A stretch of DNA of 64,000 bases from the UHGV virus genome UHGV-0036384. One strand, 5' to 3'. The notes beneath the pieces are model-generated. The model did not search any database. It was given only the letters and a program-made list of their open reading frames with translations, and was not told the DNA's origin. The position numbers and the translations under genes were made by a program. Shown here in pieces: positions 59,242 through 64,000 of this stretch (position 1 is the first letter of the stretch; each line of letters begins with the position of its first letter). Source of the DNA: a virus.

Positions 59242-61157
59242 GCCGCTACCCCCGCTTTCTGGATTGCTACCAACAGATCAGCCAGGTGGCGAGCTGCGCC
59301 GTTAACCAGCTCTTCGTTTTCCTCAAAACGTCCGGCAGCCTGAAGGGCTGCAATCGCTTCCCGGACATTGCCCCGGGCGTTACGGATCTCCGCCATGTCA
59401 GTGCTTTGTATATCCATCACGTTATTGAGATATTCAATGGCTTTATTAGCCTCTGCATCTGCTTCGCTAACCGTTTCATCAGGCTGTGCCGGGGCCGGTT
59501 CTGGCTGAGGAATCTCACCGACTTCGGCCTGCAATGCATTGATCATGCTCTGCACCATTTTCTCGGTGCCAGCGCCCCCAGGAAACGCAATATTGGGGAA
59601 AGTTTTTTGAAACTGAGTTTTCAGCATTACGCGGAACTCGTCTGGTGAGCTGGTGGCCAGCTCCAGAGCTTTTTGTGCATATTTGCCAAACGGACCATTA
59701 GTAAGTGTCTTCGCCAGGAAGTCGAAAGAATCCTCGCGAGGCAATAACTTCAGGTCGTACTCACTCATTTGCTGATCAGAAAGCGGGGTATCGTAAGTAG
59801 CAATGCCGTAGCGTGCATATTCATAATACGGGTCACCTTCATCAGGGCGCGGCAGAATTGCTTTGTTACCTTCAGGTATTGCGCCAGGGGCCGCCGGACG
59901 CATTTGCAGGGCATATCGATATGCACCTACAGAGACTTCTGGTTCAGGCGAAGAGCTACCGGCATCCTCCGCTGGTTCAGGTTCGACGTTTTCCGGTTTA
60001 TGTTCTTCTGGTTGGACCAGGTATTCCGATACATTACCCGCTTTATAGGCTTTAAACAGCTTGCCGATCGCATCTGCCATGTCCACACCCTGTATGGATT
60101 TAGCCTTGATCATGTATACGCTGCCATCCGGATCGGTTAACTGGATATACCCTTCGCCGCCCCCAATGAATTGCTTCATTGATGCACCATTACTGAGCGT
60201 CACTTCCCCGTCCATATGCATACGATTTTTGATACTGGCAAGGCGATCCGTCAGCGCGCGAGAGTGCCCACCAGTCATCCCCGCTGGAGCAATGGTATCG
60301 CGCCCACCAGTGCGATTGAGCTGATCAATCTCCGTCTGCAAACGCTCATTCTCTTCATAAAGAGAATCCGCTTCCGATGCAACAGCGTTAATTTTCTGCT
60401 CCAGATCTGCCTTCTGCCCTTCTACCGCTGCCACCTGATCCGCGAGGTCGCTCATGGCATCCTCTTTCTGGTCACTGTCAGCCTGTAGTTGGGTTATTTC
60501 ATCAACAAGGGCTTTTTTCTTCTTCTGCGCACGCTGGAATTTTGCCGAGTTTTTCTCTGCAAGGTTGGCAAGTTTCATGGTGACCTGCGCCAGCGTCATA
60601 TCACGTCCACTCATCGGAGCAACGGTGTGAGTAACGTCTTTTTTATTCAGTAAGAACTGGAAAGCAACCAGCGTATCGCTATTGGTGATCCGGTTTTCCG
60701 CTGTCGGGCTATGAAACAGAATGCTGATAGTCTGACCATCACTGAGCGGAATAATGGCTGGCAAGACCGGCAGCCCGTTAACGTTACGTGCCCGGCCAAT
60801 TTCAGCGCCGCCGATCGCGCGCGCGCCGCTCTGGGCCACATCCCCCGTTTTATCACTCCCCGCAGAGATTCCGGTACCATTCAGCTTCTGGTTCAATGCC
60901 CGGACAAATGCCTGCATGGTCCGGTGTAACTGCAAACGAGTAGAACTAATCGCCTCCAGTAAATCCGTAGCACACCAGTGGATCGGCGTGTCATAGAAGA
61001 ACGTAGCCTCGATTTCCTCCAGGGTGTTGGATTCCGTCATCAGATAGCGGTCCTCACCGGCCATTAATGCGCGATATTCATCATCAGTCACTGGCGGGGG
61101 AAGCACGTCAAGCCCAGGCTTGATCGTCACCCCTTTATTGATATTGAACTGTTCCAT
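59238..61157 (-). CDS. darA: DarA antirestriction/internal head protein candidate (639 aa)
   Basis: Synteny-based: 639-aa ORF in a leftward operon starting with holin-like genes. Confidence 0.55.
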   Translation of the reverse strand: MEQFNINKGVTIKPGLDVLPPPVTDDEYRALMAGEDRYLMTESNTLEEIEATFFYDTPIHWCATDLLEAISSTRLQLHRTMQAFVRALNQKLNGTGISAGSDKTGDVAQSGARAIGGAEIGRARNVNGLPVLPAIIPLSDGQTISILFHSPTAENRITNSDTLVAFQFLLNKKDVTHTVAPMSGRDMTLAQVTMKLANLAEKNSAKFQRAQKKKKALVDEITQLQADSDQKEDAMSDLADQVAAVEGQKADLEQKINAVASEADSLYEENERLQTEIDQLNRTGGRDTIAPAGMTGGHSRALTDRLASIKNRMHMDGEVTLSNGASMKQFIGGGEGYIQLTDPDGSVYMIKAKSIQGVDMADAIGKLFKAYKAGNVSEYLVQPEEHKPENVEPEPAEDAGSSSPEPEVSVGAYRYALQMRPAAPGAIPEGNKAILPRPDEGDPYYEYARYGIATYDTPLSDQQMSEYDLKLLPREDSFDFLAKTLTNGPFGKYAQKALELATSSPDEFRVMLKTQFQKTFPNIAFPGGAGTEKMVQSMINALQAEVGEIPQPEPAPAQPDETVSEADAEANKAIEYLNNVMDIQSTDMAEIRNARGNVREAIAALQAAGRFEENEELVNGAARHLADLLVAIQKAGVAA

Positions 61158-61158
61158 G

Positions 61159-61770
61159 TTAATTTCCTGCTTTCAGTTGCTTAAGACGGCGTTTGAGTTC
61201 GCCATTTCGGGCCTTTTCGTTATTGAGTCGGCCTGTCTCCTTATCCAGCTTCGCCCGCAAATCAGTGATCTGCTGTTGATTGAAAGACACCGAGTTCTGC
61301 GCTGATTTATAAGCGGCAACCACCTGAGCATTCCGCTGTTTTGCCTCTTGCAGGCGCTGAAAGTTGGATTTTACTGCCGGTTTCTTGTCTACCGGATTGG
61401 CAACACGTTTCGCTTTGGCGATCAGTGATTTCTGGAATTTTGCGGAGTTTTTGCGGGCCGCTTGCCCCATGACGGTACCAAGCGTCTTGATATCCGACGA
61501 TTGAGCGTTAGGAATAGCTTTTCCATTCAGCCTCACAGACGATATATCGCCAGTATCGTTTACCTGTATGGCAAGAATTTGTCCGTCGTTAAGAACCAGC
61601 TTTGCGGTTTTAACTTTAACGCCATCTTTCGTTGTTGCGCGGTTGCTGGAGTCAACCTCAATTACCGTAACACCGGTTTTATTGATCGCCGCGATAAGGG
61701 ATTTCAGCCCCTTTTCATTAACCTGGTCAAAATCGACCGTTGCATACTTATTTTTCGTCATCTGACACAT
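61159..61770 (-). CDS. hdf: Hdf candidate (203 aa)
   Basis: Synteny-based: immediately upstream of the darA candidate. Confidence 0.4.
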   Translation of the reverse strand: MCQMTKNKYATVDFDQVNEKGLKSLIAAINKTGVTVIEVDSSNRATTKDGVKVKTAKLVLNDGQILAIQVNDTGDISSVRLNGKAIPNAQSSDIKTLGTVMGQAARKNSAKFQKSLIAKAKRVANPVDKKPAVKSNFQRLQEAKQRNAQVVAAYKSAQNSVSFNQQQITDLRAKLDKETGRLNNEKARNGELKRRLKQLKAGN

Positions 61771-62191
61771 CCTGTGCGAGATTTATTACGTAACTTCTGC
61801 GGATTTGCTGAGTAACAGGGAAAATCCGATACAACGGGTTAATGAACGAGTCGCCATGCGTAACCATGACGTTGAAATGCCACAGTCGCTCTCCTTTACC
61901 CATATATTCAGTGGGTATGTACAACCATTCACTGTTTTCGCCCTGTTCAGCCGACGTCAAACAACGTTGTTCGCCTTCAATCACTGTCGTCGGCTTCTGA
62001 ACATCGCGGATCCAATATCTGACCGTTGCGCCGCGCAAAAACGGGAATTTAGACCGGTATTTGAACGGCACCCGGATGAAACCCGGTTTAATTTCCACAT
62101 CACCAAGTTCTAAATGCGTGATGTCCTTGCGTTTTAGCAAATAGCGATCGGCTAAGGCTAACGCAAGAACGCATACACCCCAGCCAATCAT
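61748..62191 (-). CDS. LydB-like lysis regulator candidate (147 aa)
   Basis: N-terminal hydrophobic segment then soluble domain; position after the holin-like gene. Confidence 0.4.
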   Translation of the reverse strand: MIGWGVCVLALALADRYLLKRKDITHLELGDVEIKPGFIRVPFKYRSKFPFLRGATVRYWIRDVQKPTTVIEGEQRCLTSAEQGENSEWLYIPTEYMGKGERLWHFNVMVTHGDSFINPLYRIFPVTQQIRRSYVINLAQDVSDDEK

Positions 62192-62517
62192 TTCCCGCCT
62201 CCCTTTTTCACCAAACTTGTAAGAACATTCAGAATGCTATCGATATTCACTCGTTTCATCCCTGAAATCACCTCATGACCGTTATTGCTGGCTATCGTTA
62301 CCATTAAGTACGTAATTGATAACTCCCAGCCCTCGTGTTGCCCCAATAGGTACGCCACCGCGCCAGCTGTCACTGCAACAAAGATCTCCGTAACCAATCC
62401 CAACAAATTGCCAGACTGGCGACCGTCTCGGACATCCATCAGGAACGTGCCTATCCCACCAATTACTGAAAGCAGGAGCGCAATAGCAACTGGAGCTAAT
62501 TCCTGTGTGTCAAGCAC
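62188..62517 (-). CDS. holin-like membrane protein (LydA-like, 109 aa)
   Basis: Three hydrophobic helices and charged C-terminus. Confidence 0.45.
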   Translation of the reverse strand: MLDTQELAPVAIALLLSVIGGIGTFLMDVRDGRQSGNLLGLVTEIFVAVTAGAVAYLLGQHEGWELSITYLMVTIASNNGHEVISGMKRVNIDSILNVLTSLVKKGGGK

Positions 62518-62591
62518 AAGTTCCCTCCTACGTTGTCAGGAGGTAATGGTATGCAAAGTAACTTCTCAACCGGTTATGTTGCATAAGAGAC

Positions 62592-62855
62592 TTACCTATT
62601 CAACCGACTTTTGGAACCTTCAATAATAAGCCTGCTATTGGCGCTGAAAATAAGAACCATGCAGCTCTGAAGGCTTTCATTCATATCCTTATATTCCGCG
62701 AGATACATGCCAATAAAGCCAGCAAGTACGGCGGAAATACATTCGGCCAGCAATTTCTTGCATGAAGACTCGTAACGGTTTTCACATAGCCCACTCAAAT
62801 ACGAATACACCCCACCAAGAAGGGATAACATCACGATATGTACATAAAATGTCAT
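62592..62855 (-). CDS. small membrane protein (87 aa), first gene of the operon
   Basis: Two hydrophobic helices. Confidence 0.4.
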   Translation of the reverse strand: MTFYVHIVMLSLLGGVYSYLSGLCENRYESSCKKLLAECISAVLAGFIGMYLAEYKDMNESLQSCMVLIFSANSRLIIEGSKSRLNR

Positions 62856-62982
62856 TTTTTACCTATACAACAGTAAGTTGAACAACATCTGAGAACGGTA
62901 TGCACTTTGTGATTTCCACACACACTGGTTTTGTTAATTAAAACCTGTAGCTTGCAATAAATAACGATAGTGGGCAGAAAAT

Positions 62983-63168
62983 ATGCTAATAGGCTATGTA
63001 CGCATATAGACAAATGAACAAAACACAGCTATGCAGTGAAAAGCACTTGAAAGCGCAGGATGTGAGCTAATTTTTGCGAATAAGGCGAGCAGCAAAAAGG
63101 CTGGGCACCCTGGGTTAAAAAAGGTTCTGCGTATGCTTTCCAGAGGTGATACCCTAGTCTCGGGCTAG
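62983..63168 (+). pseudogene. decayed serine-recombinase (Cin/Hin-family invertase) N-terminal fragment
   Basis: In-frame MLIGYVRI*TNEQNTAMQ*KALESAGCELIF...GDTLV, collinear with the Cin N-terminus but with two internal stops and truncation. Confidence 0.6.
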
Positions 63169-63290
63169 GGACAACATTTCGAGGACAGTTTTCATTAGCG
63201 GTCAGCAGGCGCTAGATACATCGAATTGATGTGCCGCGCGATAAATGTACCTATTCTATCAAGATAAATTACACCGACGCGGCATTAGAA

Positions 63291-63863
63291 TTACAGCTCA
63301 GATTGAGTTTGGCGCTTCTCTACAGGATGATAACGATAAATCGTCGATACACCGATATCGTAAATAATTGCCAACTGTTTCCTGCTGTAGCCATTTTCGA
63401 TCAACCTCGCTATTTGCTCATGTTGTTCTTTTGTCAACTTCGGGCGACGTCCGCCAATGCGTCCCTGTTCGCGTGCAGCTGCCAGTCCGGCCAGTGTTCT
63501 CTCAACAATTAATTCACGTTCCATTTCTGCTAAAGCCCCCATGACGTGAAAAAAGAAACGCCCCATGGGTGTTGATGTGTCAATACTGTCTGTCAGACTA
63601 CGGAAATTAACACCTTTTTCCCGCAACTCCTCTATAAGCGTGATAAGGTGTTTCATACTTCTGCCAAGCCTATCCAGCTTCCAGACAACCAGCGTATCTC
63701 CTTCTGATAACGTTCTGAGCAGCTTTTTCAAGCCTGGTCTGGCTGACTTTGTTCCGCTTATTTTATCTTCAAAAATCAGTTCACATCCTGCGCAGTTCAG
63801 TGCATTTCTTTGTAAATCTGTGTTTTGGTCATTTGTTGACACACGAATGTAGCCAATTTGCAT
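63291..63863 (-). CDS. cin: Cin-type serine DNA invertase (~190 aa)
   Basis: Serine-recombinase catalytic domain (GYIRVSTNDQ, VWKLDRLGRS) and C-terminal HTH; strong match to Cin/Gin/Hin as recalled. Confidence 0.85.
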   Translation of the reverse strand: MQIGYIRVSTNDQNTDLQRNALNCAGCELIFEDKISGTKSARPGLKKLLRTLSEGDTLVVWKLDRLGRSMKHLITLIEELREKGVNFRSLTDSIDTSTPMGRFFFHVMGALAEMERELIVERTLAGLAAAREQGRIGGRRPKLTKEQHEQIARLIENGYSRKQLAIIYDIGVSTIYRYHPVEKRQTQSEL

Positions 63864-64000
63864 GAAAAACAACCTCTTTGTTTAGTTAAAAATACATCGT
63901 TGGTATAGGTAGGGATTAAGACTAAAACGTTGGTTTGGGGGAAGGCTCTGCACTGCCCGTTGGCGTGCCCGTTCCGTGGCCATCAGCCACACCTCCAACG

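Follow-up and report, generated by a model that had tools for sequence, protein, structure and literature searches.

Which inversion system does the crossover-like string beside the invertase gene at the right-hand edge of this DNA belong to, and does it border a region that is shuffled? The window (the whole stretch analysed, 64,000 nt) had been described in an earlier note as carrying, just upstream of the invertase start, a string that resembles the core of Din-family sites, interpreted as a possible cix site next to cin. The string is present: CTAAAACGTTGGTTTGGGGGAA occupies 63922-63943 on the plus strand, inside the interval 63919-63946 named in that note. It forms most of a 26-bp crossover site at 63918-63943, the outermost, invertase-proximal one, which lies 55 bp upstream of the invertase ATG (63863). 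On the plus strand the site reads AAGACTAAAACG-TT-GGTTTGGGGGAA, the central TT (63930-63931) being flanked by 12-bp halves that form an imperfect inverted repeat. On the minus strand, to which we assign the feature from the sequence read and from its identity to the published site mixMl''L', it is TTCCCCCAAACC AA CGTTTTAGTCTT. The half-site layout is of the Din type (TTCnnnnAAACC-like 12-bp halves and a 2-bp core), and the dyad is imperfect, being AAACG..GGTTT and not AAACC..GGTTT. The inner half is a full match to the family half-site; the outer half retains AAAACG and deviates in its outermost bases.

A scan of the window with the strict palindromic 'dix' consensus, allowing up to two mismatches, returned no match, since the invertase-side half departs from the consensus in its three outermost bases. 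We therefore turned to a weight matrix that holds no information from mix sites, derived from nine hix, gix, cix, pix and bix sites in the literature. When both strands of the 64-kb window were scored, the site was the top 26-mer, with 18.1 bits versus 13.4 bits for the runner-up, and no second crossover site was found by the matrix on either strand of the 64 kb. A score of 18.1 bits was attained anywhere in 11 out of 500 shuffles of the window. The resemblance of the site to Din sites is beyond chance.

The family was assigned by comparison with the Din-family crossover sites in Table 3 of PMC3241671, which were drawn from Sandmeier et al. 1990 and GenBank X62121. In its minus-strand reading, the window site is identical at 26/26 positions to the p15B site mixMl''L', given in that table (PMC3241671) as TTCCCCCAAACC AA CGTTTTAGTCTT. 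Identity is 17/26 to P1 cixL and 16/26 to cixR, and the P1 cix sequences (TTCTCTTAAACC AA GGTTTAGGATTG / ..GGTATTGGATAA) are not matched by the site; the pix sites share 19/26 positions with it, and the hix and gix sites 12-16/26 (hixR 12/26). We consider it very likely that the site, in a P1-like phage-plasmid, is the mix site closest to the invertase in a Min multiple DNA inversion system of the p15B type. The p15B Min multiple-inversion system ('Min shufflon') of E. coli 15T- was reportedly worked out by Sandmeier, Iida, Arber et al. in 1990-1992. The Min/mix system of the window is already known, and apart from a corrected annotation nothing is added here beyond that p15B work of 1990-1992.

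The gene next to the site, at 63291-63863 on the minus strand, is an intact serine DNA invertase gene of the min type (190 aa), as judged by its ORF, domains and structure matches. The protein starts with MQIGYIRVSTNDQ, the presumed catalytic serine being residue 9, contains the Pfam domains Resolvase and HTH_7, and matches the Gin structures 4m6f and 3uj3 over its full length (E ~1e-92 to 4e-92). Its amino acid identity to P1 Cin is 74%. The sequence is exactly that of UniRef Q05517_ECOLX 'DNA-invertase' and is found on at least 1000 contigs. At the nucleotide level, the invertase gene of pJIE250-3 is 99.3% identical to the window gene; its product has 98.5% amino acid identity to p15B Min and was described as lying 'in reverse orientation' relative to P1 cin (PMC6906374). 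The window gene is transcribed away from the invertible region. Two promoter scans, one of them looser, covered the interval from the invertase gene to the site and on into the cassette head, and gave no convincing sigma-70 consensus promoter. Located in the leader/promoter region of the invertase, the site may possibly also act as an autoregulatory operator. On the other side of the gene, a terminator-like hairpin (ATGCCGCGTCGGTGT followed by a T-rich tail) is found at 63271-63285 on the minus strand (8472-8486 in the related plasmid L003), 6 bp downstream of the invertase stop and within the 130-bp spacer between min and psi-cin.

A presumed Fis-dependent recombinational enhancer, recognised by its homology to the P1 cin enhancer, lies at 63774-63845 on the minus strand. 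This candidate falls within codons 7-30 of the invertase gene, at the 5' end of its coding sequence, with its near edge ~85 bp from the site centre, and is identical without gaps at 58 of 72 positions to the annotated P1 element (NC_005856 31678-31749). According to the same record, NC_005856, the P1 enhancer is 83% identical to p15B nt 6463-6533.

Further to the left, alignment to the 5' end of P1 cin revealed psi-cin, a truncated 5' remnant of a P1-type cin on the plus strand at 62983-~63160, with an in-frame TAG at codon 9. In the related plasmid L005 the same stretch is annotated by PGAP as 'DNA-invertase; internal stop; incomplete'. The window is ~94% identical to P1 at the nucleotide level up to 63160; both megablast and alignment show that the P1 homology stops abruptly at ~63160, inside the cin homologue, and the Min module starts ~130 bp further on. 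Here the P1 backbone is joined to a module common to P2-like prophages. The inversion module (63288-63998) is a horizontally exchanged unit and the rest of the window is P1-like; the P2-like resemblance of the module fits the known mosaic evolution of tail-fibre genes. The p15B layout of NAR 1991 is said to consist of psi-cin, a reversed min, a mix site, the invertible cluster and a tail-fibre gene with a repeat-built constant part.

As the earlier note had recognised, the window stops before any partner site, 57 bp past the site, and the array beyond it was read from close relatives and not from the source molecule of the window. No record identical to the window over 25 kb was present in the plasmid or E. 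coli complete-genome collections, the best being 99.8%; L005, one of the two closest relatives, is 99.8% identical over these 25 kb. Phage vB_EcoM-673R5 is 99.7% identical over 61000-64000, and several plasmids are 100% identical over 62800-64000, including L003 (NZ_CP076303.1), whose coordinates are converted to those of the window by adding 54799. L003 has seven sites, three in the orientation of the window site (9119, 9558 and 10058) and four inverted (11639, 12078, 12565 and 13079), the latter 2.5-4.0 kb to the right of the window site. Oppositely oriented sites are present in every relative examined, and the number of sites among close relatives ranges from 5 (673R5) to 8 (L010), with 6-8 in the plasmids; the sites closest to the invertase share one orientation, and the inverted ones are 2.5-4 kb to the right. 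All 7 L003 sites have the central TT and the right half GGTTTGG(G/A)GGAA (GGTTTGGGGGAA or GGTTTGGGAGAA). Every site of L003, L004, L005, L008, L009 and L010 has TT as its core when read in its own orientation, which corresponds to the AA of the published mix sites on the opposite strand. An identical asymmetric core dinucleotide in partner sites is needed for religation after a 180-degree rotation.

The DNA between the sites encodes tail-fibre ends. In L003, each right half is followed by ~200 conserved nucleotides encoding ..GLGEGSALPVGVPVPWPSATPPTGWLKCNG.., which is a Phage Tail Collar domain. At every internal site there is an overlap with the stop codon that ends the cassette before it (..FNYIVRAA, then stop), so that the cassettes are ~145-170 codons long (~0.45-0.5 kb) and have neither promoter nor start codon. 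The last inverted L003 site is inside the 974-aa tail-fibre gene S, at about residue 805, where the Collar domain begins; upstream of ~residue 805, S is made of Phage_fiber_2 repeats. The constant part of S contains ~300-nt tandem repeats in 6 copies, 87-100% identical except for one 62% copy, and 12 Phage_fiber_2 stretches (17908-19704 in the 673R5 record, L001; 12587-15508, minus strand, in L003). S is 2628-2925 nt long among the relatives in which it is annotated intact, and this difference in length suggests that the repeat number varies between relatives. A single Caudo_TAP tail-fibre assembly (chaperone) gene is located in the central invertible segment (L003 10578-11189, minus strand; L008 9033-9644, plus strand), directly downstream of cassette C4 only and antisense to S in some isomers.

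At the window edge itself, 63944-64000 on the plus strand holds the first 57 nt of such a promoterless tail-fibre C-terminal cassette, identified by translation. The plus frame is closed upstream by an in-frame TAA at 63923-63925 and opens within the site; the cassette start reads ..VGLGEGSALPVGVPVPWPSATPPT.. and the frame continues to the window end as NVGLGEGSALPVGVPVPWPSATPPT. A minus-strand ORF ending in TAG inside the site was considered as a gene end and rejected, as the plus frame gives ..GLGEGSALPVGVPVPWPSATPPTGWLKCNG.. of the Tail Collar domain. The full-length version of this cassette in L003 is 144 aa long and has a Phage Tail Collar domain. The 57 nt stand as an exact copy beside the invertase in L003, L004, L008 and L009, and in L005 only behind the S constant part, inverted. 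The cassette beside the window site is silent.

Whether the sites recombine can be judged from the order of the cassettes. In six related plasmids we assigned cassette types from the variable C-terminal portions. With arrowheads for strand and Sc for the S constant part, the arrays are: L003, >C1 >C2 >C3 [U<] <C4 <C5 <C6 <C7-Sc; L009, >C1 >C5 >C7 >C3 [U<] <C4 <C8-Sc; L008, >C1 >C4 [U>] <C3 <C5 <C7 <C5 <C6-Sc; L004 (with L007 as its continuation across the record start), >C9 >C1 >C10 >C7 >C3 [U<] <C4-Sc; L010, >C11 >C3 [U<] <C4 <C6 <C9 <C12 <C7 <C5-Sc; and L005, >C6 >C12 ... <C10-Sc. The cassettes common to plasmids (C1, C3-C7, C9, C10 and C12) vary in order, rank and strand, and S is fused to C7, C6, C4, C5 or C10, different in each plasmid, the L009 junction being the truncated fragment C8. 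In L008 the C3-U-C4 unit at the centre has the opposite orientation. Both outer half-sites, AAGACTAAAACG next to the invertase and TTCTTAATTACC next to S, are fixed in all arrays, and the rearrangement breakpoints coincide with sites. In this comparison between plasmids, the cassette arrangements look as would be expected for the footprint of repeated Min-mediated inversion at pairs of oppositely oriented sites. Some of the rearrangements may owe part of their origin to homologous recombination in the conserved cassette heads of ~200 nt. In prophage Phi2 of E. coli EC958, inversion has been seen directly in PacBio data at closely related sites, TCCTCAATTACCTT GGTTTAGGAGAA and GAGAGATAAACGTT GGTTTGGGGGAA (PMC4134206).

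L008 holds cassette C5 twice, and at least 12 intact cassette types occur in this small sample. In the 673R5 record (ON470615.2, L001), the invertase is split as 'Hin1'/'Hin2' at 14288-14859, and 3 of the 5 crossover sites have GGGG for GGGGG (14914-17915), which breaks the cassette frames. We rejected the reading of 'Hin1'/'Hin2' and the broken cassettes as real pseudogenes; they look like homopolymer sequencing errors. Frameshifted cassettes are also found in L005 and L006.

By analogy with Hin, Gin and Cin (cf. PMC3798978), an invertase dimer would bind the 26-bp site, and the site would pair with an oppositely oriented mix site 2.5-4 kb off on the same supercoiled molecule, the paired sites assembling at the Fis-bound enhancer within that invertase's gene. 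The catalytic serine (residue 9) would make 2-bp staggered cuts at the central TT/AA, the subunits would rotate by 180 degrees, and religation of the ends would leave the intervening DNA inverted. With several sites in each orientation, successive inversions would shuffle the short promoterless cassettes, each of which is predicted to encode the final ~145-170 tail-fibre residues. Expression would be limited to the cassette behind the S constant part, at the far outermost site, and the window site would be the fixed left boundary of the invertible region. A change of the receptor-binding tip would then change the host range. In the Min literature, the outcome is described as alternative tail-fibre tips and hence host range (PMC6109161). 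For the system of the window, we infer Fis dependence, cleavage chemistry and the host-range consequence from the related invertases. We further put forward, as a doubtful suggestion, that the Min arrays in this clinical E. coli/Klebsiella phage-plasmid lineage have outgrown the six sites of p15B; cassette exchange between co-resident elements and invertase action in trans could follow, since cassette heads and sites are common to P2-like prophages.

Three other readings of the site were weighed. The one proposed in the earlier note takes it as a cix site of the P1 Cin/C-segment system, in which a pair of sites bounds a single ~4.2-kb segment containing Sv/U and Sv'/U'. In its favour, the replicon is P1-like (nucleotide identity ~94% as far as 63160), the site is of the same Din family, and cin occupies the corresponding place in P1. 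However, the site itself speaks for p15B mix (26/26) over cixL (17/26) and cixR (16/26). The adjacent gene, which the note had called cin, is only 74% identical to Cin at the protein level and is reversed relative to P1 cin, whose 3' end is overlapped by cixL, whereas the true cin homologue in the window is the truncated pseudogene psi-cin. The anatomy disagrees as well: instead of a two-site C segment, the relatives have a cluster of 5-8 sites with short cassettes and a single chaperone gene. A P1 cix site is thus very improbable here, and this reading is refuted for practical purposes. Least probable is a chance origin, in which an AT-rich near-palindrome in the invertase leader would have no recombination role. 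It is true that the palindrome is imperfect and is missed by the generic dix consensus at up to two mismatches, and that an equal weight-matrix score arose somewhere in 64 kb in 11/500 shuffles. Nevertheless, the site is exactly identical to a characterised one and adjoins an invertase gene, the DNA adjoining it in relatives carries 5-7 further copies exactly at cassette boundaries and in both orientations, and the rearrangement breakpoints coincide with the sites. The identity to mixMl''L', the site copies in relatives and the rearranged arrays already refute this reading.

The remaining alternative is a relic: the site could be a true mix site by descent in a system that is dead here, without inversion, either through loss of its partner sites or through a silent or inactive invertase. 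The window stops 57 bp past the site, with the partner sites outside it, and the invertase has no recognisable promoter; moreover, in pJIE250-3, which has a Min-like invertase, the tail-fibre region is strongly reduced (PMC6906374), and several relatives have frameshifted cassettes. Yet many of these frameshifts are in homopolymers and are likely sequencing errors (e.g. GGGG for GGGGG in 673R5). In addition, the invertase ORF is intact, with its exact sequence on at least 1000 contigs, the site is conserved at 26/26 positions, and the closest relatives hold full arrays that are arranged differently. We regard a relic as unlikely, with a small chance of being correct, and retain a p15B-type mix site of the Min system as the preferred interpretation.

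The earlier interpretation is thus partly supported: it named the kind of site correctly but was mistaken about the family and the anatomy. Its site proved to be a crossover site of a Hin/Gin/Cin-family invertase, with the full match to a published mix site and the top weight-matrix score, and the arrays in relatives show that it borders an invertible tail-fibre region; the inverted copies whose absence within a few kb to the right would, by the note's own test, have refuted it are found in relatives, as in L003 at 2.5-4.0 kb. The annotation is corrected in that the p15B Min shufflon, and not the P1 Cin switch, is the inversion system of this lineage of P1-like phage-plasmids. The tail-fibre tip in this lineage has many possible forms, not two, and genuine differences, or misassemblies, are to be expected across the inversion region when assemblies of these plasmids are compared.

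Compared with known systems, the locus shares with Hin/hix, Gin/gix and Pin/pix a 26-bp site of imperfect 12-bp halves and a 2-bp core as well as a ~190-aa serine recombinase, and its candidate enhancer would likewise act in cis, but the site identity is only 12-19/26 (12/26 for hixR and 15-19/26 for the others), and Hin controls a promoter and not a coding cassette. The resemblance to P1 Cin/cix extends to the genomic position, the recombinase family (74% aa identity), the switching of tail fibres and a homologous, presumed enhancer in the 5' part of the recombinase gene. In contrast, P1 has two sites and not many, with 16-17/26 site identity; its cin points toward the C segment, with cixL overlapping its 3' end, and each P1 alternative comes with its own U/U' chaperone gene. 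P2-like prophages (P88, Fels-2 and SEN8) match window 63288-63998, i.e. the invertase, the site and the cassette head, at ~76-79% nucleotide identity, and the 3' site of EC958 Phi2, GAGAGATAAACGTT GGTTTGGGGGAA, has the common core and right half; these prophages, however, carry two-site, single-segment systems in a P2-type genome.

The p15B Min system presumably also resembles the present one in having psi-cin next to the invertase and a tail-fibre constant part built of repeats. It (GenBank X62121) has the same invertase-proximal site (26/26), internal sites with the half TTCCCC(C/T)AAACC and a central AA (those here are 0-2 bases off the p15B internal sites), an invertase facing away from the region, and variable 3' cassettes fused by inversion; the Sc-junction site is nearly the same, differing by one base (TTCCCCCAAACCAAGGTAATTAAGAA here, ..AATCAAGAA in p15B). 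The differences are in extent: p15B has six mix sites, compared with 5 (673R5) to 8 (L010) in the relatives and one in the window itself, and the cassette repertoire of the relatives is partly distinct, with occasional duplicated cassettes.
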